64,000 nt of DNA, taken from positions 13,531 to 77,530 of the forward strand of contig DAOOJE010000013.1 of assembly GCA_035384965.1 (NCBI GenBank), given 5' to 3'. Both the position numbers and the translations under genes were made by a program. Source of the DNA: Thermoanaerobaculaceae bacterium. GTDB taxonomy: Bacteria > Acidobacteriota > Thermoanaerobaculia > Thermoanaerobaculales > Thermoanaerobaculaceae. The notes beneath the pieces are model-generated. The model ran no database searches, was not told where the DNA came from, and saw only the letters and a program-made list of their open reading frames with translations. Of the stretch, positions 47,498 through 64,000 are shown in pieces (the stretch's first letter is position 1; each line of letters opens with the position of its first letter).

Positions 47498-49030
47498 CTA
47501 CCAGGACGAGCCGAGCTCGCCGACCTCGGCCTCGACCGCATCGAGCACGTCGCAGCGCTCGACGGCCGCCATCATGGCGTTGTGGTCCGGGAAGAGCGGG
47601 CGATCCTCGTCGAGATGCGCCACGACCTTGCGGACCGCGGCCTTGGCGGCGCGCGTCCCAAGGCCAGGTGTGAACTCCCTGAAATCGAGCGCCTGGGCCG
47701 CGGCGATCAGCTCGATCCCCAGCACGCCGTAGGCGTTGGCGAGGATCTGCTTGGTCTTCAGCGCGGCGTTCATGCCCATCGACACGAAGTCCTCCTGGTC
47801 AGCCGCCGCCGGGATCGACTGGCAGCACGACGGCGTCGAGAGGATGCGCTGCTCGACAATGAGCGTGTCGGCGGTGTACTGCGAGAGCATGAGCCCGGAA
47901 AACATGCCGGCGCCCCTGGTGAGGAACTCCGGCAGCCCGACCGAGAGCGCCGGGTTGAGCAGCCGGTTGAGCCGGCGTTCGGAGAGCACCGAGACGGTCG
48001 TGAGCCCGGCGCCGATCATGTCGAGCGGGAGCGACACCGGCGTGCCCTGGAAGTTGGCGCCGGTGAGCACGAGGTTGTCCTCGGCCACGAACACCGGGTT
48101 GTCGGCCACGGCGTTGAGCTCGATCTCGACCTGGGCGCGGGCGTACGCCATGGCGTCGCGCACGGCGCCGATGACTTGCGGCGTGGAGCGCATCGAGTAG
48201 GCGTCCTGCACCTTGGTCTTGAGCTTGCCGGTGACGAGGTCGGAACCGGCGATGACCTTCCGGAGGTTGGCGGCGCAGGTGATGGCGCCCTTGAAGCCGC
48301 GCAACACGTGGAGCTTGTCTTGGTACGGCTTCATGTTGGCGAGCAGCGCCTCGAGCGACATGGCGGCGGCGATCTCCGCCTGCTTCAGCCAGCGCTCGGC
48401 GTCGTAAAGGATCAGGCAGGCGATGCCCGTGATGAGGTTGGAGCCGTTGATGGCAGCGAGGCCGTCACGCGCCTTCAGCCCCGGCACCGGGATCCCGGCC
48501 AGTTCCATCGCTCGCGCCGTCGGCATGCGCTCACCCCGGTAAAACGCCTCGCCTTCGCCCATGAGCGAGAGCGCGAGCTGGCTCATCGGCGAGAGGTCGC
48601 CGCAGGCGCCCACCGAGCCCTTCTCGCACACCACGGGAGTCACGCCCTTGTTGAGGAGGTCGACATAGGTGAGGGTGATCTCGGGGCGACACCCGGAGTA
48701 GCCGCGGGCATGCACGTTGATGCGGGACAGGATCGCCGCCCGCACATGCTCGATCGGACACGGCTGGCCGATCCCGGCCGCGTGGTTGTAAATCAAATAG
48801 CGCTGAAACTGCTTGACTTGCTCGTCAGAGAGCACCACCTCGGAGAACTCGCCGATGCCGGTGTTGACGCCGTACATGATCTCGTGGGCGTCGACCTTGC
48901 GCTCGAGCATGGCGCGGCAGGTCTTGATGCGCTCCAGGGCCTCGGGTGCCAGCTCGACCTTCTCGCCGAAGCGGGCGACGCGCACGACATCTTCGATCCG
49001 GAGATGGTGTCCATCACAAGTCACGGCCAT
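47498..49030 (-). CDS. histidine/aromatic amino acid ammonia-lyase family (MIO-type) enzyme with Ala-Cys-Gly triad
   Basis: 510 aa. Motifs YGVNTGIGEFS, NHAAGIG, GSVGACGDLSPMS (family consensus GSVGASGDLAPL), NGSNL and QEDFVSMG. Codon 143 is TGC (bases 48604..48602), verified on the DNA. Confidence 0.88.
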   Translation of the reverse strand: MAVTCDGHHLRIEDVVRVARFGEKVELAPEALERIKTCRAMLERKVDAHEIMYGVNTGIGEFSEVVLSDEQVKQFQRYLIYNHAAGIGQPCPIEHVRAAILSRINVHARGYSGCRPEITLTYVDLLNKGVTPVVCEKGSVGACGDLSPMSQLALSLMGEGEAFYRGERMPTARAMELAGIPVPGLKARDGLAAINGSNLITGIACLILYDAERWLKQAEIAAAMSLEALLANMKPYQDKLHVLRGFKGAITCAANLRKVIAGSDLVTGKLKTKVQDAYSMRSTPQVIGAVRDAMAYARAQVEIELNAVADNPVFVAEDNLVLTGANFQGTPVSLPLDMIGAGLTTVSVLSERRLNRLLNPALSVGLPEFLTRGAGMFSGLMLSQYTADTLIVEQRILSTPSCCQSIPAAADQEDFVSMGMNAALKTKQILANAYGVLGIELIAAAQALDFREFTPGLGTRAAKAAVRKVVAHLDEDRPLFPDHNAMMAAVERCDVLDAVEAEVGELGSSW

Positions 49031-50213: not shown

Positions 50214-51080
50214 ATGAGTCCCTCGCGTTCCGGCTCCCGGACCTCCCGCGGTTTCATCGTTCCCATCGGCGGCGCCGAGGACAAGCTGGCGGACCGCACG
50301 ATCCTGCGCCGCTTCGTCGAGCTGGCCGGTGGGCGCGACGCCCGCATCGCCATCGTCCCCACCGCCTCGGAACAACCCGATACCGGTGCCAACTACGAGA
50401 GGATCTTCCGCGACCTCGGCACCTGGTCCGCCCGGTCGCTGCCGATCGAGCAGCGCCTCGACTGCAGCCGCCCCTCGGTGCTCGAGGAGCTGGCCAGCGC
50501 CACCGGGATCTTCCTCACCGGCGGCAATCAGCTTCGCCTCACGACGACGCTCGGCGGCACCGAGGTCGCGCGACTGATCCGCCGCCGCAACGCCGCCGGG
50601 GTGGCGGTGGCCGGCACCTCGGCCGGCGCCTCGTTCATCTCCGAGCACATGATCGCGGGCGGCGACGAGGGAGGCACCCCGCGCGCCGGCATGGTGCGCC
50701 TGGCCGCGGGCCTGGGGCTGACCAACAAGGTCATCATCGACCAGCACTTCCGCCAGCGTGACCGGTTCGGGCGCTTGCTCGCGGCGCTCGCTTACAACCC
50801 GTTTCCGGTCGGACTCGGCCTCGACGAGGACACAGCCGCGTTCATCGGCCCCGACAACGTGCTCGAGGTCGTGGGGGAGGAGGCGGTGACCGTGGTCGAC
50901 GCGAGCCGACTCACCTTCAGCGCCATGGGGCGGGTGGCCGATGGTGAGCCGGTCTCGATGCTCAACGTCCGCGTCCACGTCCTGGTCGCGGGCGGTCGTT
51001 TCAACCTCGAGACCCGCGAGGCCTTCGCGGAGGACGGGCCGCTGGCGTTCGGAGCCGAGGCGGCCGAGGAGGAACGCTGA
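50214..51080 (+). CDS. cphB: cyanophycinase (S51 peptidase), intracellular type (no signal peptide)
   Basis: ATG 50214 gives [24 protein letters not shown]. Motifs: IFLTGGNQ, AGTSAGAS (nucleophile Ser) and IIDQHF.QR.RFGRL. The track ORF 49968..51080 is over-extended. Confidence 0.88.
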   Translation: MSPSRSGSRTSRGFIVPIGGAEDKLADRTILRRFVELAGGRDARIAIVPTASEQPDTGANYERIFRDLGTWSARSLPIEQRLDCSRPSVLEELASATGIFLTGGNQLRLTTTLGGTEVARLIRRRNAAGVAVAGTSAGASFISEHMIAGGDEGGTPRAGMVRLAAGLGLTNKVIIDQHFRQRDRFGRLLAALAYNPFPVGLGLDEDTAAFIGPDNVLEVVGEEAVTVVDASRLTFSAMGRVADGEPVSMLNVRVHVLVAGGRFNLETREAFAEDGPLAFGAEAAEEER

Positions 51081-53917
51081 TGCGCGTGCTCGAACGCCGT
51101 GTCTACCGCGGTCCGAACCTGTACGCTCACTTCCCCGTGATCCGGCTCACCGTCGACCTGGGGGTGCTTGAGGACTACCCCTCGAACAAGATCCCGGGGT
51201 TTGCCGACAAGCTGCTGAAGCGGCTGCCGCGCCTGGACGAGCACGGCTGCTCGTACGAGGAGGAAGGCGGCTTCGTGCGGCGGCTGCGCGAGGGCACGTG
51301 GATCGGCCACGTCTGGGAGCACGTGGCGATCGAGCTGCAGAACATGGCGGGCGCCCACGTGTCGTTCGGCAAGACGCGCTCCACCGGGCGGCCGGGCGAG
51401 TACCACATCGTCTACGAGTACGAGGAAGCACACGTCGGCGAGCGCGCCGGCAGGCTGGCGCAGCTCCTCATCGAGAGCCTGCTGCCCAAGAAGCTGCGCG
51501 TGCAGGTCCGCCCGCCTCGCGGCGCGGAGCAGGAGGAAGAAGAGGAACTCGACTTCGACACCGAGCTCGAGGATCTGATTCGCTACGCCCAGAGGCGGCA
51601 GCTCGGCCCGTCCACGTTCTCGCTCGTGAAGGCGGCCGAGGCCCGCGGCATCCCGTGGTTCCGCCTCAACGACTACTCGCTCGTCCAGCTCGGGCACGGG
51701 CGCTACCAGAAGCGCATCCAGGCCACCGTGACGTCGGAGACGCGCCAGATCGCGGTCGAGATCGCCTCGGACAAGTCGCAGACCAACCGCATCCTGGCCG
51801 ACATCGGCCTGCCGGTGCCGCGGCAGGCGATCGTCTACTCGCTGCGCGAGGCGCTCGAGGCGGCCGAGGACATTGGCTACCCGGTCGTGATCAAGCCACT
51901 CGACGGCAACCACGGGCGCGGCGTGGCCGCCAACCTCACCGGCCCGGAGGAGGTCAAGACCGCCTATCCGACGGCGCGCGAGATCTCGCGCATCGTCGTG
52001 GTGGAGAAGTTCATCGAGGGGCTCGACCACCGCATGCTGGTGGTGGGCGGCCAGCTCATTGCCGTGGCGCGCCGCGAGCCCGGCAAGGTGGTGGGGGACG
52101 GGGTGCACACCGTGGCGCAGCTCGTCGACATCACCAACCAGGACCCTCGGCGCGGGATCGGCCATGAAAAGGTCCTGACGCGGCTGGCGCTCGACGAGCA
52201 GGCGCTGCGCATGCTCGCCGGCAAGGGCTACACCCCGGAAACCGTGCCGCCGGCCGGCGAGAGCGTGTACCTCCGCCTCACCGGCAACCTCTCCACCGGC
52301 GGCACCGCGACCGACGTAACCGACGTGGTGCACTACGACAACCGCGAGATGGCGATCCGCGCTGCCCAGGCGATCGGTCTCGACGTGGCCGGGATCGACT
52401 TCCTCTCCCCCGACATCACGAGGTCGTGGCGGGAGGTGGGCGGCGCGATCTGCGAGGTCAACGCCGCGCCCGGGTTCCGCATGCACGTGGCGCCCACCGA
52501 GGGACAGCCGCGCGACCCCGCGGGGCCGGTCATGGACATGCTCTTCCCGCCCGGTTCGCCGGCCGCAGTGCCGATCGCCGCCCTTACCGGCACCAACGGC
52601 AAGACCACCACCGCCCGCATGCTCGCTCATATCCACAAAATGGCCGGGCGGGTCGTGGGCCTCGCCACCACCGACGGGGTGTACATCGACGGCCAGCGCT
52701 CGGTGGAGGGCGACCTCACCGGCCCGACCGGCACGCAAATGGTGCTGCGCGACCCCACGGTGGACCTGGCGGTGCTCGAGGTGGCGCGCGGCGGGCTGCT
52801 GCGCTCGGGGATGGGCACCCGCTACTGCGACGTCGGCGCCGTGCTCAACGTCGCCGCCGACCACCTCGGCCTGGACGGCGTCAATACCGTCGAGGAGCTG
52901 GCGCGCGTCAAGCGGCTCGTGGTCGAGGTGGCGCGCGAGTGTGCGGTGCTCAACGCCGACGACCCCCTGGTGCTGGCCATGGCCGACTATACCCAGGCCA
53001 GGCAGATCATGTACGTGACCATGAACCCGAGCCACGAGCTGGTGCGCGAGCACATCCGCGCCGGCAAGTCGGCGGTGGTGCTCGAACGCGGCATCGCCGG
53101 CGACATGATCACGCTGTACGACAAGGGGCAGCACCTGCCGCTGGTGTGGACGCACCTCATCCCGGCCACGATGGAGGGGCGGGCGCTGTTCAACGTCCAG
53201 AACGCCATGTTCGCGGCCGGCATGGCATGGGCAATGGGCGTCAAGATCGAGGGGATCCGGCACGGGCTGCGCACCTTCGACACCACCTTCTTCCAGGCCC
53301 CCGGCCGGCTCAACGTGTACGAGGAGCACCCGTTCAAGGTCATCGTCGACTACGGGCACAACCCGCACGCGATCAGGGCGATGTGCGACCTCGTTCAGCG
53401 CCTCGAGGTGCCGGGACGGCGCCTCGTCGTGCTCACGATCCCCGGCGACCGCCGCGACGAGGATGCCCTCGAAGTCGCGCGCATCGCCGCGCCGCATTTC
53501 GACCACTTCGTCTTGCGGCGCGACGACAACTTGCGGCGGCGGGGTCCCGACGAGATCCCCCTGCTCCTCAAGCGGGGTCTGATCGAGGCCGGCGTGCCCG
53601 AGGAGCGGATGAGCGTGGTGCCCGACGAGCAGGAGGCCAACCTGGCGGCGCTGCGCATGGCGCGTCGGGGCGACCTGCTCGTCATCTTCGCCGAGAAGCT
53701 GACCCGCACCTGGAAGCAGGTCATCTACTTCCGCCCGGAAGGCGAAGCCGCGGTCAGGCCCGAGGCCGGCCGCGAGGCGCCGACCGCCCCGAGCCCGGTG
53801 CCGCCGCCGGGCGTCGTTGCCGAGCCGGTCGTTCCCTCCCTCACCCTGCCGGAGGGCGCCCGCCTCATCCGCGACGAGCGCGGGGTGCGGCTCGCGCGCG
53901 AGGACAGCGAGGACTGA
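51080..53917 (+). CDS. cphA: cyanophycin synthetase (N + ATP-grasp G + Mur-ligase M domains)
   Basis: 945 aa. ATG 51080 overlaps the cyanophycinase stop as TGATG. The start MRVLERRVYRGPNLYAHFPVIRL is typical of CphA. The ATP-grasp core shows YPVVIKPLDGNHGRGV and EVNAAPGF. The M domain shows GTNGKTTT, NVAADHLG, DYGHNPHA and PGDRRDED. Confidence 0.93.
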   Translation: MRVLERRVYRGPNLYAHFPVIRLTVDLGVLEDYPSNKIPGFADKLLKRLPRLDEHGCSYEEEGGFVRRLREGTWIGHVWEHVAIELQNMAGAHVSFGKTRSTGRPGEYHIVYEYEEAHVGERAGRLAQLLIESLLPKKLRVQVRPPRGAEQEEEEELDFDTELEDLIRYAQRRQLGPSTFSLVKAAEARGIPWFRLNDYSLVQLGHGRYQKRIQATVTSETRQIAVEIASDKSQTNRILADIGLPVPRQAIVYSLREALEAAEDIGYPVVIKPLDGNHGRGVAANLTGPEEVKTAYPTAREISRIVVVEKFIEGLDHRMLVVGGQLIAVARREPGKVVGDGVHTVAQLVDITNQDPRRGIGHEKVLTRLALDEQALRMLAGKGYTPETVPPAGESVYLRLTGNLSTGGTATDVTDVVHYDNREMAIRAAQAIGLDVAGIDFLSPDITRSWREVGGAICEVNAAPGFRMHVAPTEGQPRDPAGPVMDMLFPPGSPAAVPIAALTGTNGKTTTARMLAHIHKMAGRVVGLATTDGVYIDGQRSVEGDLTGPTGTQMVLRDPTVDLAVLEVARGGLLRSGMGTRYCDVGAVLNVAADHLGLDGVNTVEELARVKRLVVEVARECAVLNADDPLVLAMADYTQARQIMYVTMNPSHELVREHIRAGKSAVVLERGIAGDMITLYDKGQHLPLVWTHLIPATMEGRALFNVQNAMFAAGMAWAMGVKIEGIRHGLRTFDTTFFQAPGRLNVYEEHPFKVIVDYGHNPHAIRAMCDLVQRLEVPGRRLVVLTIPGDRRDEDALEVARIAAPHFDHFVLRRDDNLRRRGPDEIPLLLKRGLIEAGVPEERMSVVPDEQEANLAALRMARRGDLLVIFAEKLTRTWKQVIYFRPEGEAAVRPEAGREAPTAPSPVPPPGVVAEPVVPSLTLPEGARLIRDERGVRLAREDSED

Positions 53918-55548
53918 TGGAACTTCGCCTCTCGCGGCGCCTCACCGGCCCGTCCCTGTGGCTGGACGGGCCGGGCGCCGTCCTCGAGGTGTTCCTGGAG
54001 GACGGCGACGCGGACCCCGTGCCGGCGTGGCGCGAGGCGCTCAAGCGCGCCCACGCCACTCTCGGCTGGCCGCGGCGGGCGCACAGTCGTCGCTCCGGCG
54101 AGCGCCACCTCGCGCTCGCAATCGAGGCACCGTTCGACTGCTTGCTGTGTGCAACGTACGTGAACGAATGGGCTGCCGCCGGCGGTCCCGAGGACGAGCT
54201 GCCCGCCCTCGCGGCCCGTGCCGCCGAGGAGGTGGACCCCGCCGTCCGGGAAGCGGTGGCCGAGGCCGAGCGGCGCGGGGTGCCGTGGTTTCTCGACGCG
54301 GAAGGGTTGACGGTCGGGCTGGGCCGCGGCGCGGTCACGGTACCCCGCAGGACCGGAGCAGCCGGGGGAAGCGGCGGCCCGGCCGAAGGGTCCGGGGTGC
54401 GGGTCGTCGAACGTCACGACCTCATCCCGTGGGACGAGGTGAGTGCCGTGCCGTTGGTGCTCGTCACCGGCACCAACGGCAAGACCACGACGGTGCGGCT
54501 GCTCGCGCGGATGGCGCGCTGCGCTGGCCACACCGTGGGTGCCACCACCTCGGACGGGATCGCCATCGACGGCGCGCTCGTCGAGGCGGGGGACTGGACC
54601 GGGCCGGGGGGCGCCCGGCGGGTCCTGCGGGATCCCCGCGTGACATGGGCCGTGCTCGAGACGGCGCGCGGCGGCATGCTGCGGCGCGGGCTCGTGCTGC
54701 CGCGTGTCGACGCGGCTGCCGTCACCAACGTTACCGCCGACCATCTCGGCGCCCACGGCATCGACACCCTGGCCCAGCTCGCCGAGGTGAAGCTCATCGT
54801 CGGCAAGGCGGCGCGCCACCTCGTGCTCAACGCCGACGACCCGGAGCTGGCCGGACACGAGGCAGGTTCTTGGTTCTCGCTCGAGCACGAGGTCGAGGGC
54901 GCCTGGCTGGCCGGCGACGAACTCGTGTGCGGCACGCTGCACGTGCCGGCAGCGGAGGTGCCGGTCACGCTCGGGGGCGCCGCCCGCTACCACGTGGCCA
55001 ACGCTCTCGCCGCCATGGCGCTCGCGCGGGCCACAGGGCTCCCAGACGAGGCCATCGCCGCCGGGCTCCGCAGCCTCCGACCCACGCCCGAGGACAACCC
55101 GGCCCGCGCCAACCTGCTCGACCACCGGGGGGTTTTCATCTTCCTCGACTACGCCCACAACCCCGACGGGTTGCAGCAGACCATGGCGCTGTTGCGCCGC
55201 CTCGCCCCGGGACGGATCGTCGTCTCGCTGGGTCTGCCGGGCGACCGCGACGACGAGCAGATCCGCGCCTCGGCGCGAGTCCTGCTCGACGCAGCGCCCG
55301 CGCTCGTGATCGCGCGCGAGCTCGGGAGCCGCTATTTGCGCGGCCGCCGCCCCGGCGAGGTGCCCGGGCTCATCCGCCAGGCGCTGCTCGACGCTGGTCT
55401 GCCTCCGGAGCGGGTCGCCGAGGCGGCGAGCGAGCCCGAGGCGATGGAGCTGGCGATGCGGCAGGCCGCGCCCGGCGATCTCGTGGCGGTGCTGCCTCAC
55501 GTCGAGCGGGATGCCGTCCGCGCCTGGCTCGAGGGAGGGACGACCTGA
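53917..55548 (+). CDS. CphA paralogue lacking the ATP-grasp domain (CphA N-domain + Mur-ligase M domain only)
   Basis: ATG 53917 overlaps the cphA stop as TGATG; 543 aa. The N-terminus MELRLSRRLTGPSLWLDGPGAVLEV parallels the CphA start. AEAERRGVPWFLDAEGLTVGLGRG parallels the CphA G-domain entry. A Gly-rich linker follows, then a complete Mur-ligase module: GTNGKTTT, TTSDG, NVTADHLG, LNADDP, DYAHNP, GDRDDE. Confidence 0.85.
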   Translation: MELRLSRRLTGPSLWLDGPGAVLEVFLEDGDADPVPAWREALKRAHATLGWPRRAHSRRSGERHLALAIEAPFDCLLCATYVNEWAAAGGPEDELPALAARAAEEVDPAVREAVAEAERRGVPWFLDAEGLTVGLGRGAVTVPRRTGAAGGSGGPAEGSGVRVVERHDLIPWDEVSAVPLVLVTGTNGKTTTVRLLARMARCAGHTVGATTSDGIAIDGALVEAGDWTGPGGARRVLRDPRVTWAVLETARGGMLRRGLVLPRVDAAAVTNVTADHLGAHGIDTLAQLAEVKLIVGKAARHLVLNADDPELAGHEAGSWFSLEHEVEGAWLAGDELVCGTLHVPAAEVPVTLGGAARYHVANALAAMALARATGLPDEAIAAGLRSLRPTPEDNPARANLLDHRGVFIFLDYAHNPDGLQQTMALLRRLAPGRIVVSLGLPGDRDDEQIRASARVLLDAAPALVIARELGSRYLRGRRPGEVPGLIRQALLDAGLPPERVAEAASEPEAMELAMRQAAPGDLVAVLPHVERDAVRAWLEGGTT

Positions 55549-56435
55549 TGAACCCCGTTCCCGCGATCGAGTTCGCTCCCGTGCCGGCCCGTAGCGGCTG
55601 GACCAGAGTGCTTGGCGGGGCGCTCACGGTCGTGGTGCTGGCGGTGTCCGCCTTCGGCGTCCTCCTCGTCGTCTCGCGCCCTTCGATCGCCTACCGCATC
55701 TCGGGCGGCGTACTCGAAATTCAGGGCGGCGAGTCGTTTCTGGCCAGCCGTCGAGCCTATCCGCTCTCGAGCATCACCGGCTGGCGCGAGGTGCGGCTCG
55801 GGCGCGGCCGCCGCACCGCCGGGACCGGCATGCCGGGGCTGTGCGCCGGGTACTTCGCCTACGACAACGTGGGCAAGGTCTGGCAGGTCACCAACTGCAG
55901 CCGCGACGTGCTGCTGCTCGAGGTGGCCGGCGAGGACCGCCCCGTCCTCCTCACGCCGCCCGACCGCGCCGCCTTCCTCGCCGCGGTGCAGGACCGCCGA
56001 GACGGCGATTTCTCGCCGCCGCCCTACCGCCAGCCCGCGTGGTGGGTGCTGCTCAAGGTTTTTCTCGTGGCCGCCACCCTGCCGGTCGCGGTGTACGTGG
56101 GGGCGGCGTTCTTCCTGGCCTCGCGGCGGTTGCGCTACCGCGTCGGAGGCGGCGAGCTGGAGGTCGGGCTTTTGCTCCTGAGCAAGCGCTTCCCGCTCGC
56201 CGGTGTGCACGCTCGCCGCTATACCCCGAGCCGTGCCCTCAAGTGGGGCGGTACGGCCATGCCCGGCTATTACGCCGGCCGCTTTTCCGTCGACGGTGTG
56301 TCGACCCGGGTCTACGCCTCCGCCCTCCGGCAGGAGGGCGTCCTGCTCGAGGGCGAGCCGCGCCTGTTCCTCACCCCCGCCGACATCGACGGCTTTCTCA
56401 CCGCCCTGCGCGACAACGGCGCCCGCTTCGACTGA
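55548..56435 (+). CDS. membrane protein with two tandem TM + bacterial PH-like (bPH) modules
   Basis: ATG 55548 overlaps the upstream stop as TGATG; 295 aa. There is a clear internal duplication: RPSIAYRISGGVLEI...GTGMPGLCAGYFAY...VLLTPPDRAAFLAAVQD versus RRLRYRVGGGELEV...GTAMPGYYAGRFSV...LFLTPADIDGFLTALRD. Each copy follows a hydrophobic segment. Confidence 0.75.
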   Translation: MNPVPAIEFAPVPARSGWTRVLGGALTVVVLAVSAFGVLLVVSRPSIAYRISGGVLEIQGGESFLASRRAYPLSSITGWREVRLGRGRRTAGTGMPGLCAGYFAYDNVGKVWQVTNCSRDVLLLEVAGEDRPVLLTPPDRAAFLAAVQDRRDGDFSPPPYRQPAWWVLLKVFLVAATLPVAVYVGAAFFLASRRLRYRVGGGELEVGLLLLSKRFPLAGVHARRYTPSRALKWGGTAMPGYYAGRFSVDGVSTRVYASALRQEGVLLEGEPRLFLTPADIDGFLTALRDNGARFD

Positions 56436-59192
56436 TCAGTCCAGCAGCTCTTGCACCCGTCGCAGGAGTGCGTGGCGGGAGAAGGGCTTCTGCAGCGCGT
56501 TGAATCCGCCGGCCAGCGCGCCGCCATTGTGCAGGACGTCGAAGCTGTAGCCCGTGCAGAACAGCACCTTTGCTCCGGGACGGCGGGCCACGATCGTGTC
56601 GTGGACGGCCTTCCCGGAAAGCTTCGGCATGACGGCATCCAGGACGTAAAGATCCACCGCCTCAGCCTCGGCTGCAGCCAGCTCGACGGCCTCCGCCCCG
56701 TCGCGGGCCACGATCACCCGGTAGCCCGCCTCCTGCAGCACGCGTGCCGCGAACTCGCGGACCTGTGCATCATCCTCTGCCAGCAGGATCGTCTCACCGC
56801 GGCCGAGCGCCATGGGGACGGTCGCGTCCTCGGGCGACGGCGGGGCCACGCCGGGGGCCGCCGCGGGCAGGAAGACCCGGAACACGGTCCCTTTGCCGGG
56901 CTCGCTCTGCACCTCCACGAAACCTCCGTGCTGCTTGACGATGCCGTAGACCATCGCCAGCCCGAGCCCGGTGCCCTTGCCCACCTCCTTCGTGGTGAAG
57001 AACGGCTCGAAGACCCGGTCGAGGTTTTCCTGGGGAATGCCGCAACCAGTATCGGCAACCGCAAGGACGACGTACGTGCCTGGCCGGGCCCCGGGCACCC
57101 GGACAGCGCTCTCGGCGTCGATTTCCACATGCCAGGTCTCGATTCGCAGCACGCCGCCGTCGGGCATGGCGTCTCGGGCGTTGACACACAGGTTCACGAG
57201 CACCTGCTCGAGATGCCCGGGGTCGGCGAAGACCATCGGGAGGCGGCCATGGCTCACCGTGTGGAGCTCGATCCTCTCCTCGATGAGGCGCCGGAGCATC
57301 TTTGCCAGGCCGGTGATCAGAGCATCCAGGTCGACGGCCTCGCGCTGCATCGTCTGGCGGCGACTGAACGCCAGGAGCCGGCGGACGAGCGTCGCTGCGC
57401 GGTCGGTGGCCCGGCCGACCTCCTCCAGTTCGTGAGTCGGGCTCTCCCCGGTCGCGAGCCTGAGCTGGGCCAGCTCCAAATAGCCGGTGATGACCTGGAG
57501 CAGGTTGTTGAAATCGTGGGCCACACCACCGGCGAGCGAACCGATCGCTTCCATTTTCTGCGCCTGCCGGTACTGCTCCTCGAGGCGGCGCACCTCGGTG
57601 ATGTCGGCTGCCACACCCAGGACCCCGAAGACGTCTCCGTCCGGCGCCGTGAGTGGCACCTTGTTGGTGTTGAACCAGGTGACGCGCCCGTCCGTCTGGT
57701 GCTGTGTCTCGACGATACCGAGCTTGGGTCTGCCGCTATCCATCACTTCCCTGTCGTCGGCGCGATACTTCTCCGCTTCCGTGCTGGCCCACGGGAGGTC
57801 GAAATCGGTCTTGCCGACGATGTCCTCCACGGCCGAAAGCCCGGCGCCGCGCGCGAACGCGAGGTTGCAGCCGAGGTACACCGAGCGCCGGTCCTTCCAG
57901 AACACCACGCCAGGAAAGTGATCGAGCACACTCCGCAGCATCTGCCGGCTGGTCTGCAGCTCCTCTTCGGCGCGCTTGCGCTCGGTGATGTCCCGGGCTG
58001 CCGCAAAGATGAGCGAGCCGACCGGAGTGGAGCGCCACTCGATGAATCGGTAGCTGCCATCTCGGCAACGGTAGCGGTTGACGAAGTTGAGCACCTGCTG
58101 CTGCTCGCGCAAACGGCCCAGAGCCTCGAGCGTCGGTTGCAGGTCATCCGGATGCACGAAGTCGAAAAACCGCCGGCCTTCGAGGTCCTCGATGGGGTAC
58201 CCGAGCGTGCGCTCCCACTCCCGGTTGAGCCGGTGGAACACACCGTCGGTGTCGGCGATGCAGAGCAAGTCGAGGGCGATCGAGAAGAAGTTGTCGAGCT
58301 CCTCGGTCTTGCGCCGCAGCTCCTCCTCGGTCCGCCTCAGCTCGGTGATGTCGACCGAGACCCCGAGCAGACCAGCCGCTCGCTGCGGGCCGAAACGGAA
58401 GGGGACCTTGGTCGTCTGCAGCAGGCGAGTCTCGCCGGCCGCGGTCGTGATCCTCTCTTCAGGGATGAGTCTCGGGCGGCCGCTGCGGATCACCTCGAGG
58501 TCGTTGGCCGCAAACGCCATCGCCTCGGCTTCGGAGGCCGAGAAGTCGCGGTCGGTCTTGCCGAGGACGTGAATCGGCGTTGAGCCGTAGGCCTCGGCGA
58601 CCGCGCGGTTGACGAGCAGGAAGCGTCCCTCCTTGTCCTTGGCGAAGACGAAGTGCGGGATGAGGTCGATGACCTGCCGGAGGAAGACCGCCGAGTCTCT
58701 CGCCGCGCGCATCGATTCGACCTGTAGCGTCACGTCGTTGACCGTCACCAGGAAAGCACCGCGGGTGCCTTCCGGTGTCCCCAGACGCCGGACGCTGACC
58801 TCGACCTCGCGAGTCTCGCCATCGGGTCGGTCGATCCTTCCCTCGAGAACGAAGGGACCGGGCTCGCCCGCACGGATCCGCCTGGCCACCTGGATCGCTC
58901 CGGGAAAGGAGTGCTTGGACAAGAGACGCCGCAGGCGCAGCGCTGACACATCCTCTGCCCGCGCCCCGAGGACATCGAGCAGGGCCTGGTTCGCGGCCAG
59001 CATTTCGAGGGTGGGTGCGACCAACGCCATGCCCACCGGCGAGATTTCGAAGGCGTCCGCCAGCGCCTCGACAGGCCGGGCAGGCCCCCGAGGAGACCGT
59101 GCCGGCGGGGCCGTCTCGGCCATTGGGGGCATGGCCCCCGGCTCATCGGATGCGACCGCACGGCCTCTCTTGTGCAGCGGATCCTCGCTCAT
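56436..59192 (-). CDS. hybrid sensor histidine kinase (multiple PAS domains + HisKA + HATPase + receiver)
   Basis: ATG 59192 has GGAG about 6 nt upstream (the track start GTG 59204 is also possible). At least four PAS/PAC-like repeats are present. H-box [14 protein letters not shown]. HATPase motifs [16 protein letters not shown] and [10 protein letters not shown]-terminal receiver (ILLAEDD....[13 protein letters not shown]....K). Confidence 0.88.
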
Positions 59193-59330
59193 CGAGCGCT
59201 CCACCTACTCCGGCAGCCTGCCCAATGCGTCGTCAGTCGACTGCTGCTTCCATCCTAGCACTGCTCGATCCGGCTCACCCGGGCTCCGCGCCCCGGACAC
59301 GCGCCGGGCGGCTGCGGCCAGCGCCGCCGG

Positions 59331-59903
59331 TCAGCACAGGCGGTCGAGGCTGTGGGCGAGCTGCCGCAGGAGTGCACCTCGCACCTCGTCGGCGAGCGGG
59401 CGGGCCCCCACGAAGCCGATGACGAAGCTGCCACCCTCTTCTTTCGCCACCCGCACCGCGAGCAGCCGGCGGGTCGCGAACTGCAGCTCGATGGTCAGCA
59501 AGGAGCCGGAGTCCGTGTCGATCCGATCGAGTTGCTCCATGGCATAGGCGATCTCGGCCCCCAGCCCCTCGAACTGGTTGGCCGGCACGTTGCCGCGGGT
59601 GGCGACCACGAAGCCCTGGGGGTCCACCACGAACCCCGCCCGAGCCCGGCACAGCTCGAGACTCCAGGCGAGAAACACTTCCCAGCTCTCGAGCTCGAGA
59701 GGAGGCGCGTGGAGGTCCACCGGCATCGGCGCCGGCTCCGGCTGCGGCGGCGGAGACGGCGGCATGGCTGGAATCGGCGCCGGCTGCAATGCGGGAACCA
59801 GAGCTGGAGCGGGCGCCCACGTCCCCGGGGTCCGCCGCGCCAACGACGCGCTGAGTTCCCGGACCTGCGCGAGATCAGACGAGTTGACGCTGCACCTTCT
59901 CAT
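59331..59903 (-). CDS. Roadblock/LC7-like domain protein with Pro-rich N-terminal region
   Basis: 190 aa. ATG 59903 overlaps the ParA-like 3' end by 29 nt. A Pro-rich linker comes first (APAPALVPALQPAPIPAMPPSPPPQPEPAP). Then GFVVDPQGFVVATRGNVPANQFEGLGAEIAYAMEQL....SLLTIELQFATRRLLAVRV, which fits the Roadblock/LC7 (MglB-like) pattern. Confidence 0.6.
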   Translation of the reverse strand: MRRCSVNSSDLAQVRELSASLARRTPGTWAPAPALVPALQPAPIPAMPPSPPPQPEPAPMPVDLHAPPLELESWEVFLAWSLELCRARAGFVVDPQGFVVATRGNVPANQFEGLGAEIAYAMEQLDRIDTDSGSLLTIELQFATRRLLAVRVAKEEGGSFVIGFVGARPLADEVRGALLRQLAHSLDRLC

Positions 59904-60690
59904 GATCCTCTCCAGCGGCGCCGGTCAGCTCGGCAATCAGGCGCTCGATCTCGTCGGCCAGGATCTCGAACCGCCGCGCCTCCGGTGGTGTGCGCCCGCC
60001 CATGAAGCTCACGGGGAGCCCCACCTCGCTGGCGCGCGCGAACGCCTCCCCGCGCGGAATCGCGGTGTCGAGCACCCCCGCGAGTTCAGCCCAGACCGTC
60101 CCCATCACGTTGAGCGACGTGTCCTTGCGCAGCTCGACCATGGTGGGCAGGATCCCCAGCAGCTGCAAGGCCGGGTTCTCCTGCTTCCGGACGTGGTCGA
60201 TGACTCGCAGCACCTGTCCGACGGCGCGCAACGCCAGAGGCTCGGCCTGCAGAGGGACCAGCGCAAAGCCAGAAGCGGCGAGTGCTGCTCTGGTGACCAC
60301 GCCGAGGCCGGAGGGGCAATCGATGATCACGTACTGGCGGCCGTCCCCGAGCTGCGCGACGAGCTCGGCGACCCGCGCCGGCGAGTTGAGCAGAATCTCG
60401 TATTCCCTCACGTCGACCGCGTCCAGGCGGCCGCGCGGCAGGATCGCGAGCGCCGGGATCTTGGTCTGCACGAGCACTTGGTCGAGCGGCAGCCCGGCGA
60501 GAAGATGCTCGGCAAGGCCGGACCACTCTCCCTCACCCCTGGCCAGCGAATGGGCGATCGAGCCTTGCGGGTCGAAGTCGACCAGTACCGTGCGGCGGCC
60601 CCTTTCAGCCAGCGCAACGGCGAGGTTGAGTGCGGTGGTGGTCTTTCCCGTCCCACCCTTCGAAGAAACAAGCGAGATCACGTGTGCCAT
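59875..60690 (-). CDS. ParA/MinD-family P-loop ATPase (orphan)
   Basis: 271 aa. Deviant Walker A VSSKGGTGKTTTALNLA, then VLVDFDPQGS, then Walker B YVIIDCPS. Confidence 0.88.
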   Translation of the reverse strand: MAHVISLVSSKGGTGKTTTALNLAVALAERGRRTVLVDFDPQGSIAHSLARGEGEWSGLAEHLLAGLPLDQVLVQTKIPALAILPRGRLDAVDVREYEILLNSPARVAELVAQLGDGRQYVIIDCPSGLGVVTRAALAASGFALVPLQAEPLALRAVGQVLRVIDHVRKQENPALQLLGILPTMVELRKDTSLNVMGTVWAELAGVLDTAIPRGEAFARASEVGLPVSFMGGRTPPEARRFEILADEIERLIAELTGAAGEDHEKVQRQLV

Positions 60691-60750
60691 GGTCGCTCCC
60701 CTGCCCGGCCACTGCCGGGCCAGACCGCGCGGTCGCGGCTGGAACCCTCT

Positions 60751-61035
60751 TCACTCCTCGATCAGGCATCGCAGCCTTTCCAGAACCTCGGCCGTGCGTT
60801 CGCCGAACAGCTGGATGCGAAGCCTCTCGCTCCCCACGATTCCCTGCACCACCCAGTCCGTCGCGTGGTCGACCCGGAAGTAGGGGCGCGGAAAATGCGG
60901 AAAATACTGCAGGATACCGGCTTGCCCGAGACGGCGGACGAGCGCCTCGCTCACCGGCTGGTCGAGCGAGACCTCGACCGCTTCCGAGCGGTCGAGACAG
61001 CTCTCGAGGTCCCGCAGGTTGGTGATCCGGGCCAT
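60751..61035 (-). CDS. small hypothetical protein (94 aa), family not recognised
   Basis: ATG 61035 abuts the TAA of the upstream PLP-enzyme gene with 0 nt spacing. The sequence is protein-like (MARITNLRDLESCLDRSEAVEVSLDQPVSEALVRRLGQAGILQYFPHFPRPYFRVDH...), and it lies in the operon frame. Confidence 0.6.
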   Translation of the reverse strand: MARITNLRDLESCLDRSEAVEVSLDQPVSEALVRRLGQAGILQYFPHFPRPYFRVDHATDWVVQGIVGSERLRIQLFGERTAEVLERLRCLIEE

Positions 61036-62172
61036 TTACCTCGCCTCCAGGCGACCCAGGGCACCGACCAGCGAATCCACGTCGTCCTCGGTCGTGCTCC
61101 AGCCGACGCTCGCCCGCACGCACCCTTCCGGGCCGCCTCCCAGCGCCCGGTGCGCGAGCGGGGCGCAGTGCAGGCCGCTGCGTACCTCGATCCCGAACGA
61201 CTCCCGGAGCACGAAGGCGACGGCATCCGGGCTCCAGCCTCGGAGGGAAAACGAGACAATGCCGATTCGTTCGTCGTCGCCGGCGAGCGGCAGTGCCCGG
61301 ACAGCGGACAGCGCGGCCAGGCCCTGACGAAGGCGTCGAACCAGAGTCGCACGGTGCGCACCGACGGAATGAACGCCCACCTCCCGGATGAGTCGGACGC
61401 CAGCCAGAAGCCCCGCCAGACCAGGGAGGTTCGGCGTGCCTGCCTCGTGGCGCAGCGGTAGCTCGGGGGGGTGGAGCGGGCTCTCGGAGCGCACGCCCGT
61501 GCCCCCGACCACCGTCTGGGGGAGTTCGCCGTCGGGCACCACGAGGCCGCCGACCCCAGGCGGACCCCATAGCCCCTTGTGCCCCGAGAACGCGATGAAA
61601 ACACGGCCCGGCAGGTGCCGGTGGTGGATCTCGACAGCCCCCGCCGCCTGCGACGCATCGAGCAGCAGAGGCACGCCGGCCGCGGCCGCGATCCGAGCGA
61701 AGTCCTCGACCGGCTGGATTGCGCCGGAGACGTTCGAGGCCCACGTGAGGGCCACCAGCGCCGTCTCGGGGCGGAGCGAGGCGGCGAGCTCGTCGACTCG
61801 AACGATGCCGTCAGGACTCGTCCCGAGGTACGAGACCGCCACGTCCAGGTCGCGCTCGCGGTGCGCGATCGGGCGGAGCACGGAGTTGTGCTCCAGCACC
61901 GACGTCACGACGTGCGAGCCGCGGGTCACGAGAGCCCCGATCACCAGGTTGATGGCGTACGTCGAGGAGGGCAGGAGCACCACCCGCACCGGATCCGCCG
62001 CACCGAGCAGGAGTGCGAGTTCCCTCCGGCAGGGTTCGATCGGGTCACAGGCGCTGTCGCCGCCGCGTGCCGCGTCGACCGGCGGGCGATCGAACCACGC
62101 CGTGACGGCTTCCACGACTTCCCTCGGCTTCGGGAAGGAGGTCGCTGCGTGATTCAGGTAGATCGCCTCCAT
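61036..62172 (-). CDS. class V aminotransferase-fold PLP enzyme (cysteine desulfurase / selenocysteine lyase-like)
   Basis: 378 aa, with GAGGGGGA 4-5 nt before ATG 62172. The start reads YLNHAATSFPKP. Also ASNVSG, DASQAAG, the PLP lysine motif SGHKGLWGPPGVG and the C-terminal RSGLHCAP. Confidence 0.85.
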   Translation of the reverse strand: MEAIYLNHAATSFPKPREVVEAVTAWFDRPPVDAARGGDSACDPIEPCRRELALLLGAADPVRVVLLPSSTYAINLVIGALVTRGSHVVTSVLEHNSVLRPIAHRERDLDVAVSYLGTSPDGIVRVDELAASLRPETALVALTWASNVSGAIQPVEDFARIAAAAGVPLLLDASQAAGAVEIHHRHLPGRVFIAFSGHKGLWGPPGVGGLVVPDGELPQTVVGGTGVRSESPLHPPELPLRHEAGTPNLPGLAGLLAGVRLIREVGVHSVGAHRATLVRRLRQGLAALSAVRALPLAGDDERIGIVSFSLRGWSPDAVAFVLRESFGIEVRSGLHCAPLAHRALGGGPEGCVRASVGWSTTEDDVDSLVGALGRLEAR

Positions 62173-62192
62173 GGTTCCCCCTCGACACGAAC

Positions 62193-62223
62193 GGCCGGAC
62201 CGGGGGTCCCCCCCGGCCCGGCC
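62193..62223. other. GC-rich 14-bp stem-loop in the V4R / PLP-enzyme spacer
   Basis: GGCCGGACCGGGGG-tcc-CCCCCGGCCCGGCC with one A.C mismatch. It sits between stop 62231 and start 62172, and no clear U-tract follows it on the minus-strand transcript. Confidence 0.5.
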
Positions 62224-62230
62224 ACCCGCC

Positions 62231-62812
62231 TCACTTCTTCGTCACGACGAACTCGCCGAACTGGTCGCCGGCCTCGATGCCGCGCGTCTGGTCGCACTCG
62301 AAAGTGCGCATCCCGTTCGGATAGGGCGCCGCGTAGGCCAGCTCCATGAACGCCTTGGAGACGCCGCGGATCATGAACGCTCGCTTTCCGTCGCCGCCCG
62401 ACTCGGCCTCGTAGTAGTCCACGGCGCGAATCGTCATCGAATCGCCTTCCTTGATCTGCACGATCCCGGACTTGGCCCAGCCCCAGGCCGTGAACACCGC
62501 GAAGGCGCCGCGCAGCACATCCTTGGCACCTTCGGTCACCATCGGCGTCACCACCGACTCGAATTCGGGGCTGGTCACGATTCCGTAGCCCGTATGGTAG
62601 CCGCACTCGTACGCGCAGTTGACGAGGGCCGCATCCATCTCCGCCTTGCGCTCCGGCGGGGTGATGGCCATCATCCGCTCGGCCACGGTGTTCCAGAACG
62701 TCCATGGAAGCTGATTGACGAGCACGTTGAAGGCGGGGATGAGCCCATTCTCGTTCGGCTTGGCCTCGACCTGCACGAGCTGCTTCACGACCTGGTCACG
62801 CATTACCGTCAT
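62231..62812 (-). CDS. V4R (4-vinyl reductase / hydrocarbon-binding-protein-like) domain protein
   Basis: ATG 62812 has GGAG 8 nt upstream (GTG 62833, overlapping as GTGA, is the alternative). The C-terminal part FMIRGVSKAFMELAYAA....MRTFECDQTRGIEAGDQFGEFVV fits the V4R end motif (E..C...G...C.F) with partial loss of Cys. Confidence 0.65.
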   Translation of the reverse strand: MTVMRDQVVKQLVQVEAKPNENGLIPAFNVLVNQLPWTFWNTVAERMMAITPPERKAEMDAALVNCAYECGYHTGYGIVTSPEFESVVTPMVTEGAKDVLRGAFAVFTAWGWAKSGIVQIKEGDSMTIRAVDYYEAESGGDGKRAFMIRGVSKAFMELAYAAPYPNGMRTFECDQTRGIEAGDQFGEFVVTKK

Positions 62813-62829
62813 GGCATGCTCTCCTTCCC

Positions 62830-63345
62830 TCACACGGCTTTCACGGAGAGCACGCTCTCCGGGGCGCCCGTGACGATGGCGGCGGTCTCGATGACCTCGA
62901 AACTGCGCGCCGGCTTGTCGAACGCCACCGCGAACATGGCGGCCACGAAGCCGCGCGTGAAGTGGTTGATGGGTTTGTCGTGCTTACCCCACTTGGCGAT
63001 CCACCCCTCGTCGACGTGGGAGTGCGCCAGCTTCGCCTCGCCGCCGGCGGGCGTTCCGCTGACGGCCATCTTGCCCATGCCCATGAACGAGTAGTACTCG
63101 GCACCCACCTGCAGGCGCTCGGCCGGCGACGTGATCCCCTTCTCCTTGACGTAGCTCTCGAGTACCGGCCGGATCGTGTCCTCGGCCGTCTCGGCCAGCA
63201 CGCGAACCGCGCCGAGGTCGGCAAAGTCTTCGGCTAGCTTGGTGGTCAGCGACATGTAGTGATGGCAGTGGAGCACGAAACCGTGCCCGTTGATGAAATG
63301 CCGGAAGGTGTTTTCGTCGAAAGTGTGCTTGATTTCCAGTGCCAT
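62830..63345 (-). CDS. V4R domain protein (Cys-less variant)
   Basis: 171 aa, with GGAGGGGG before ATG 63345. It has the length and pattern of COG1719-type V4R proteins (GMGKMAV......A.SHV...W.......P.NHFTRGFVAAMFAVAF.....FEVIETAAIVTGAPESVLSV). The usual Cys residues are replaced. Confidence 0.6.
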   Translation of the reverse strand: MALEIKHTFDENTFRHFINGHGFVLHCHHYMSLTTKLAEDFADLGAVRVLAETAEDTIRPVLESYVKEKGITSPAERLQVGAEYYSFMGMGKMAVSGTPAGGEAKLAHSHVDEGWIAKWGKHDKPINHFTRGFVAAMFAVAFDKPARSFEVIETAAIVTGAPESVLSVKAV

Positions 63346-63360
63346 GGCTCATCCCCCTCC

Positions 63361-64000
63361 CTAGAAGAAGCTGGCCAGCTCGTCGATGAGCGGCTTGGCC
63401 TTGTGGCGGATGATGCCGAGCTTGGAGGCATCCGGAGCCGTGATTGCGATGACCGCGTCGCCCACTGGCCGGCACATGATGACGGCACGGCCGTACTCGA
63501 CGAAGAGATCCTGGAACTTGGCGATCTTCAGCTCCGAACCCATCTCCTCGATGCCGTTGATGGCGTTCGCGAGGGCGGCGCCGAGGTCGTCGAGGGAGAT
63601 CGCCGTGCTGCCGCCCGACGACTCGATGACGAATCCGTCGCGGCCCACGACCACGGCCGCGGTGACGCCTGGGACCTTGAGCAACTCTTCCAGGACGTCG
63701 GTTGAGGTTCTCGGTGTCTGGGGCATGTCTTCGCTCCTTTCGTCGCCGGCCAGGTAACCGGCATGTTGTTTCTTCGCGCGCTCGTCCTGGATCCTCACTG
63801 CCTCCAGGAGCGCCTGCTGGGTCGGCATGAGCATGGTGTTCTTGGGCGAGAGCACCGATTCGAAGAAGTGGAACGTCCCGCTGGTCCAACCCATGACCTC
63901 GATCAGCGCCTCCATCCCGGCGAGCGCCCCCGACACGACGTGCACGAGATTGCCCTTCACGAGGTAGGCCCTGGCTTCCAGGCCCTTGCCGGACGGCTGC
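63361..64000 (-). CDS. DUF4388(PATAN)-Roadblock/LC7 fusion protein; 5' end beyond the window
   Basis: The frame stays open upstream of the track start (QPSGKGLEARAYLVKGNLVHVVSGALAGMEALIEVMGWTSGTFHFFE, the tail of a DUF4388 domain). After a linker comes a classical Roadblock domain: VPGVTAAVVVGRDGFVIESSGG...LGAALANAINGIEEMG......LFVEYGRAVIMCRPVGDAVIAITA. Confidence 0.75.
   Translation of the reverse strand, partial: QPSGKGLEARAYLVKGNLVHVVSGALAGMEALIEVMGWTSGTFHFFESVLSPKNTMLMPTQQALLEAVRIQDERAKKQHAGYLAGDERSEDMPQTPRTSTDVLEELLKVPGVTAAVVVGRDGFVIESSGGSTAISLDDLGAALANAINGIEEMGSELKIAKFQDLFVEYGRAVIMCRPVGDAVIAITAPDASKLGIIRHKAKPLIDELASFF

Follow-up and report, generated by a model that had tools for sequence, protein, structure and literature searches.

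Cyanophycin synthesis is thought to need one enzyme, CphA1, in which a G domain of the ATP-grasp type elongates the poly-aspartate (poly-Asp) backbone, an M domain of the Mur ligase type attaches the side chains and an N-terminal N domain completes the protein, and its relative CphA2, which relies on the G domain, recycles dipeptides in cyanobacteria. CphA2 polymerises beta-Asp-Arg dipeptides and has been described as a specialised cyanobacterial enzyme (PMC9262961). Here I discuss a gene at positions 53917-55548 (+) of a 64,000-nucleotide stretch of contig DAOOJE010000013.1 from a Thermoanaerobaculaceae bacterium (this whole stretch is called the window throughout), which lies directly behind a full-length cphA and whose product, named X in what follows, has an M domain and a predicted N domain and no G domain. 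This appears to be a new, widespread domain architecture in the cyanophycin synthetase lineage, and in the small cyanophycin field a conserved third gene of this kind is unexpected. A first-pass annotation of the window, made from its letters alone, had singled out the gene and knew of no characterised N+M-only enzyme, and none is described in the full text searched, which did not cover most subscription journals.

An M domain without a G domain

The open reading frame (ORF) that spans exactly 53917-55548 (+) has 543 codons, and its translation is identical to the protein on which the first-pass annotation had commented; residue numbers for X, and the explanations of its function weighed below, refer to this 543-amino-acid (aa) protein. 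The proposal then was a CphA paralogue that had cleanly lost the ATP-grasp domain and kept an intact Mur ligase domain, and the domain models bear out its core: Pfam finds Mur_ligase_M (PF08245) at residues 183-370 (E 1e-16, 61.6 bits, cutoff 24) and Mur_ligase_C (PF02875) at residues 397-527 (E 4e-14, 53.8 bits, cutoff 28.4), and no ATP-grasp family matches X at E<=0.1, compared with eight that match the adjacent CphA. BLASTP aligns X with that CphA at 39% identity over 386 aa (E 2e-63; X 169-526 = CphA 488-870), and every ligase motif that had been listed is there (GTNGKTTT at 185-192, TTSDG, GDWTGPGG, NVTADHLG, LNADDP, DYAHNP and GDRDDE). A second, short high-scoring segment pair (HSP; E 0.004) joins X 105-138 to CphA 174-207 at the 'AEARGIPWF' site, in agreement with the match that had been seen at the entry to the G domain.

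Between these two alignments, X residues 139-168 (30 residues) occupy the place of about 280 CphA residues (208-487), close to the exchange of some 300 residues for a Gly-rich linker of about 25 that had been read by eye. Two details of that description need correction: no ATP-grasp domain is left, but the loss is not altogether clean, the first ~35-45 G-core residues having survived, and the Gly-rich stretch (PRRTGAAGGSGGPAEGSG, residues 143-160) is a lineage-specific insert limited to the closest relatives of the window protein. Among the sequences displayed it occurs only in the window protein and in P0005/P0007, it is not in the family consensus, and most family members have a short 'WPxxxLPxPxxVDW' connector in its place. 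A cryptic ATP-grasp fold hidden in this linker is ruled out by the structural model and the family alignment, as the segment consists of 22 disordered residues that are missing in most relatives. The features of the locus are these, with pLDDT denoting the predicted local distance difference test score of AlphaFold2:

50214..51080, + strand: cphB, cyanophycinase (TIGR02069, 248 bits, cutoff 127; Peptidase_S51)
51080..53917, + strand: cphA1, full-length cyanophycin synthetase 1, 945 aa, with N, ATP-grasp G and M domains (TIGR02068, 1140 bits; NF010623, 1151 bits)
53917..55548, + strand: X, N+M-only CphA relative, 543 aa
53917..54345, + strand: X residues 1-143, predicted CphA-type N domain (~1-100, no HxxEH) and remnant of the start of the G core (~105-143, 'AEAERRGVPWFLDAEGLTVGLGRG'), from the AlphaFold2 model (pLDDT ~91), Foldseek and the BLASTP HSP
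54346..54411, + strand: X residues 144-165, Gly-rich, disordered, lineage-specific insert where the ATP-grasp core is deleted, from pLDDT and the family alignment
54412..55032, + strand: X residues ~166-372, M core (Mur_ligase_M) with P-loop K189/T190, S212, E248, N271, D275-H276 and K292 (residue roles from PMC9427784)
55033..55545, + strand: X residues ~373-543, M lid (Mur_ligase_C) with R397, D411, H414, N415, G442-D443-R444, R475-G-R477 and E481
55548..56435, + strand: membrane protein, 295 aa, two bacterial PH (bPH_5) repeats (Pfam PF10882, E 1e-13)

On alignment, every ATP- or Mg-contacting residue reported for the M site of CphA1 is kept in X: the contacts described in TeCphA1, N497, K499, T500, T522, E558, R731 and H748 (Miyakawa et al., PMC9427784), which carry the same numbers in SuCphA1, correspond to N187, K189, T190, S212, E248, R397 and H414, position 212 being Ser in the window protein and Thr in 97% of the family. 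The adenine-stacking F692 of CphA1 is Tyr in the window protein and His in most relatives. K189, E248, N271, D275, H276 and K292 are invariant among 41 X sequences, and over 73 X proteins the P-loop is present in 71 and the LExARGG and GDR motifs in all 73; also kept are DHLG and the Lys that follows it (K292 = Su K602), D411/N415, G442-D443-R444 and R475/R477/E481. When the comparison is widened to the 151 M-domain columns conserved in CphA (at >=90%), 59 are identically conserved in X and seven are conserved with a different residue, nearly all of them conservative exchanges (M/L, T/S, R/K). Residues that X has made its own lie near the active-site loops as well, namely the invariants R257 (mostly Ala or Ser in CphA), R234, N394, W319, R433 and G480, and Su E607, a polymer contact, is Lys or Arg in X. 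The contacts of the M site with the polymer and with Arg were reportedly defined by Sharon et al. in 2021 (Nat Chem Biol).

The AlphaFold2 model of full-length X, built on a 41-sequence family alignment, is confident (pLDDT 92.4; predicted template modelling score, pTM, 0.92), with only residues 147-153 below 50, and where the ATP-grasp domain would be it shows a disordered connector of 22 residues. Foldseek places it closest, among PDB structures, to CphA1 7wae_A (E 5e-38; template modelling (TM) score 0.82, query-normalised), in an alignment of 882 columns that covers the entire 877-residue target and runs across the missing G domain. In the model, then, an N domain, the G-core remnant, an M core and an M lid follow one another in X, and N lies against M in the way known from CphA1.

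An N domain at the start of X cannot be recognised by sequence: BLASTP against the adjacent CphA gives no HSP in the stretch before residue 105, the Cyanophycin_syn model PF18921 does not match X at E<=0.1 nor any of the N-terminal segments of X and 24 relatives (0/25 at E<=10), and a family N-terminal profile returns no PDB sequence at E<=10. When 66 X N-termini were set against 66 CphA N-termini with hhalign, the outcome was a weak match over residues 1-64 (P 9e-4, probability 23%), together with a low-confidence alternative alignment in the same register as the by-eye match of the first-pass annotation. That match of the N-termini is thus upheld by predicted fold and not by sequence. A separate model of residues 1-175 (pLDDT 91) has exactly five PDB matches below E 1e-3, which are CphA1 7wae_A (E 3.8e-5, 200 columns) and four CphA2 chains (8fxi, 8fxh; E 1.5e-4 to 7e-4), and no Mur ligase N-terminal domain appears among its top 50 Foldseek matches. 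The correspondence of the two N domains is drawn from the span of the Foldseek alignments and their TM-scores.

Within the X family, the N-terminal 170 residues are strongly conserved, with invariant R7, R8, T10, G11, W38, A71, P72, L76, A79, A86, G134 and G136, then W172 and P179, and a 'DALYAATEVNEW' helix besides. In CphA1, the Cx19HxxEH site of the N domain is a primer-generating endo-cyanophycinase that confers primer independence (Sharon et al., PMC9262961), and it is reported in 83% of CphA1s generally, so it is not strictly defining. The HxxEH part occurs within the first 170 residues of none of 73 X proteins and of all 66 neighbouring CphA1s, and the Cys of the site is likewise absent from the 73 X proteins, the complete Cys...HxxEH being present in 66/66 adjacent CphA1s (in the window CphA as Cys...HVWEH). 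The cyanophycin analogue bound at the M site of CphA1 has its place between N domain and M core (PMC9427784), so X would keep the whole M-site substrate-binding module.

An old family beside cphA

More than 100 full-length homologues of X, of 545-600 aa and with the same two Pfam domains, were found by a word-indexed search, and they are annotated as nothing more than 'Mur ligase family protein' or, automatically by JGI, as 'cyanophycin synthetase'; the nearest named relatives come from Thermoanaerobaculaceae (Acidobacteriota) metagenome-assembled genomes. A search of 1.84 billion representatives with the N-terminal profile gave 865 clusters at 50% identity, 628 of them at E<=1e-10, and the best 150 matches are all of <=757 aa (full-length members typically 550-620 aa, with many fragments), none being the size of CphA. 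At the level of loci, a scan with two N-terminal peptide patterns, taken from an alignment of an 8-sequence subset, in which each species was represented by one genome, confirmed at least 566 X loci in species-representative genomes, and those listed fall in Thermoanaerobaculia, Holophagales, Gemmatimonadota, Planctomycetota, Gamma- and Alphaproteobacteria and Ca. Multivoradales, with Nannocystis as a carrier in the Myxococcota. The Nannocystis proteins (P0097, P0120) reach 627-634 aa because some 60 extra residues are inserted behind the M-core NADDP motif.

The family is also old. In an M-domain alignment of 71 X proteins, 65 CphAs and SuCphA1, median identity is 52% within X, 62% within CphA and 36% between the two, and the neighbour-joining (NJ) tree holds a clean split of X from CphA. 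CphAs from other loci are about as similar to X (35.4%) as the one encoded beside it (35.8%), and with the NJ split clean, X is not a recent local deletion derivative; the earlier description of X as a paralogue of the adjacent CphA stands as to CphA descent and falls as to local origin. From these sequence comparisons, X appears as an old monophyletic family with a single, distant origin, which has been kept ever since. Decay or pseudogenisation of a duplicate is ruled out by catalytic sites that are invariant across phyla, by the confident model and by the separate clade.

The neighbourhood was read in the best 80 of these at least 566 loci, using tblastn with the N, G and M segments of the window CphA, cphB and the bacterial PH (bPH) protein, and eight of the 80 were too short to judge. 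An intact cphA abuts X in 66 of the 72 evaluable loci, upstream and co-directional as in the window in 45, convergent in 16 and divergent in 5, and cphB is present in 62 of these 66; altogether about 96% of evaluable X loci are linked to cphA/cphB. Because this linkage persists in three orientations and at least five phyla, X seems functionally tied to cyanophycin metabolism and not carried along by operon inheritance. In three further loci (L017, L025, L063), the cphA beside an intact X comes out as several tblastn fragments of reduced score, perhaps because of a frameshift, pseudogenisation or faulty assembly; if the breakage is real, X can outlive its neighbouring cphA. The complete genome of the cultured Nannocystis pusilla has the order amidohydrolase-cphB-cphA-X (L085, CP185339.1, 4989-11905), in which the amidohydrolase is possibly an isoaspartyl dipeptidase. 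Four loci of Thermoanaerobaculia/Acidobacteriota (L018, L022, L027, L033) have two cphB-cphA pairs within 10 kb, flanking a single X.

In the window, which has a G+C content of about 70%, X is the third of four co-oriented genes with one base common to each junction (TGATG): the cphB stop overlaps the cphA start, the cphA stop overlaps the ATG of X and the stop of X overlaps the start of the bPH gene. The start of cphB is ambiguous, as gene callers give 288 or 329 aa (50091/50214-51080, +) and the mechanical ORF reaches 49968. The window CphA has the Pfam domains Cyanophycin_syn, ATP-grasp families, Mur_ligase_M and Mur_ligase_C. A scan of the operon for promoters and terminators returned nothing informative. 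Since the bPH gene is linked to X only in the lineage of the window (80 other loci lack it, and it sits beside X solely in the window's own contigs), the membrane protein is probably a lineage-specific passenger, outside the conserved system. Convergent to the operon is a multi-PAS hybrid histidine kinase/response regulator at 56436-59204 (-), a 922-aa ORF called at 895-918 aa, whose stop directly abuts that of the bPH gene (56435/56436) and leaves no intergenic space for a terminator. Beyond it, a cluster at ~59300-64000 (-) encodes a ParA/MinD-like ATPase, a class V aminotransferase, a PatA_N + Roadblock/LC7 protein, response regulators and a sigma-54 activator, and may be a polarity or motility-regulation module. 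Upstream of cphB, an aromatic amino-acid ammonia-lyase (PF00221, 510 aa) lies on the opposite strand at 47498-49030 (-), with a hypothetical gene of 212-216 aa between the two.

Readings of function

The reading I favour, with roughly an even chance of being right, is that X represents, on its own, the side-chain-ligating half of cyanophycin synthetase, catalytically active and working in trans. A chain of the cyanophycin type would be bound in the groove between the N domain and the M core of X, ATP would phosphorylate a free aspartyl beta-carboxylate, and X would then attach a basic amino acid there, arginine being the likeliest. Because X has no G domain and so cannot extend a backbone, it would have to do this on chains made by the neighbouring CphA1, where it could add side-chain-ligating capacity or decorate the Asp residues that the M site of CphA1 leaves bare. 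Closely related substrates are favoured here since the conserved columns that the two families share are near-identical, and the X-specific invariant arginines near the active-site loops leave room for a different residue or position. As the M domains of the neighbouring CphA1s are intact, X does not replace a defective one, and compensation for a dead M domain in the adjacent CphA is ruled out.

Several points weigh against this reading. The very intactness of the adjacent M domains (P-loop present in 65/66) leaves the need for a second M activity unexplained, and the invariants R257, R234, N394, W319 and R433 could signal a different acceptor or amino acid. The N domain is too diverged for recognition by sequence and, with Su E607 replaced by Lys or Arg, polymer binding may differ. 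In addition, no cphA was found within the 7-10 kb of flank on each side of X at L007, L021 and L073, and the search for an alternative partner gene at L007 met only unrelated neighbours (glyoxalase, TPR, BNR, histidine kinase).

Of the other ways to account for X, the installation of a different side chain (e.g. Lys, Orn, citrulline or Glu), or the extension of side-chain Arg at its alpha-carboxylate, would give a mixed cyanophycin; it would explain why a second, separately evolving M enzyme stands beside an intact CphA1 M domain, and it suits both the separation of the X clade from all CphA M domains and the X-specific invariants, G480 included, in or near the active-site loops. I nonetheless consider it unlikely, as the columns conserved in both families are overwhelmingly identical, with seven mostly conservative exceptions, and the C-terminal 'RGR..E' region, which I take to sit at the position of the amino-acid-selecting DNPR motif of MurE, is common to X and CphA. 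X might also make primers by ligating Arg onto free Asp or a very short peptide, so that beta-Asp-Arg or (beta-Asp-Arg)-Asp seeds CphA1, for which the minimal primer is indeed (beta-Asp-Arg)-Asp (PMC9262961) and the isopeptide needs only an M-type ligase activity. All 66 of the CphA1s beside X carry the primer-independence site, however, and since they are of the primer-independent type, X is unlikely to be needed for priming; the retention of a predicted N domain, which in CphA1 is known to hold the polymer, also speaks against dipeptide synthesis, and this reading is very unlikely.

The coupling of the two genes in the window through the TGATG junction would suit a non-catalytic partner of CphA1, be it a scaffold, a regulator or a granule-associated factor, and the N domain and G-core remnant of X could dock onto CphA1, the tetramer of which is built by the G core and the M core (PMC9427784). 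Such translational coupling is not general, because X is on the opposite strand from cphA in 21/66 loci, and with the P-loop Lys, the Mg-binding Glu, the DH pair, K292 and the lid Arg and His invariant across phyla, a protein without catalysis is highly improbable. Least probable of all is a substrate other than cyanophycin, some different carboxylate-bearing peptide or metabolite, with the adjacency to cphA reflecting shared regulation or history. The three loci without a nearby cphA, the unrelated genes around X at L007 and the highly diverged N domain could be cited for it, but it would have to contend with the linkage of ~96% of evaluable loci to cphA in three orientations and at least five phyla, and with CphA1 as the closest relative in structure and sequence by a wide margin.

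A conserved M-only counterpart tightly linked to cphA and cphB in hundreds of species that belong to several little-studied phyla implies an additional step in building or repairing the nitrogen store, or else a different polymer chemistry. It is a rather unlikely prospect that X is an unrecognised third enzyme of cyanophycin biosynthesis that alters the chemistry of the polymer, through a second side chain or at positions that CphA1 cannot reach; were this so, the 'cyanophycin' of Acidobacteriota, Gemmatimonadota, Planctomycetota and Myxococcota would not be the canonical 1:1 Asp-Arg polymer, and X would supply a portable means, independent of G, of tailoring poly-Asp materials. Poly-aspartate or engineered cyanophycins, of interest to industry and biomedicine, could likewise be decorated with a stand-alone side-chain ligase. 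The model also suggests that the N+M half of CphA1 can fold and bind substrate by itself, which would bear on how the three-domain enzyme evolved and how chains are shuttled between its sites. With the cultured Nannocystis pusilla as a carrier, the function of X is directly testable.

X among CphA1, CphA2 and the Mur ligases

CphA1 (TIGR02068; PDB 7LG5, 7LGJ, 7LGQ, 7WAC-7WAF) is the system nearest to X, with the same predicted N fold and packing on M, an M domain that is 39% identical and keeps the ATP/Mg residues, and the same gene cluster with cphB; of its structures, 7LGQ contains (beta-Asp-Arg)8-Asn at the M site. X differs from CphA1 in the absence of ~280 ATP-grasp residues (the G lid, the G omega and most of the G core), which excludes elongation of the poly-Asp backbone, in the absence of the Cys/HxxEH endo-cyanophycinase site from its N domain, and in its separate clade. 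It also falls well below the family cutoffs, with TIGR02068, its best NCBIfam match, scoring 317 bits against 850 and matched only from model position ~469, and NF010623 scoring 276 bits against 877; no NCBIfam or Pfam model dedicated to the X architecture was found.

CphA2 (PDB 8FXH, 8FXI) resembles X in being a reduced CphA paralogue in which one catalytic domain is left and the N domain, in X a predicted one, is catalytically silent (PMC10273328). The reduction runs in opposite directions, as in CphA2 the G domain is active and the M domain truncated and inactive (PMC10273328), whereas X has no G domain and a full M core and lid, so that the first-pass annotation was right to see a mirror image. 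The two differ in distribution too, the specialised cyanobacterial enzyme on one side and, on the other, a family found in Acidobacteriota, Gemmatimonadota, Planctomycetota, Proteobacteria and Myxococcota.

With the Mur ligases (MurC/D/E/F, FolC/FPGS, MurT and the pseudomurein pMur ligases), X has in common the Mur_ligase_M + Mur_ligase_C core, the stand-alone build in three parts (substrate binding at the N terminus, an ATPase in the middle and a lid at the C terminus) and, as its sequence would suggest, the ATP-dependent acyl-phosphate chemistry that joins an amino acid to a carboxylate. The distance is nonetheless large: the X family profile meets SuCphA1 487-858 at E 8e-109 and the best MurE at E 4e-24, and MurE structures, which can match the ligase core only, reach a TM-score of ~0.55 against the full model. 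The N-terminal domain of X is predicted to be of the CphA type and not UDP-MurNAc-binding, and the gene stands among those of cyanophycin metabolism and not in the dcw (cell-wall and division) cluster; a peptidoglycan MurE paralogue is ruled out by the far closer CphA1 and by the cyanophycin gene context. By its sequence, X is thus a bona fide member of the Mur ligase superfamily that, on the features by which membership is judged, stands outside both CphA1 and CphA2.

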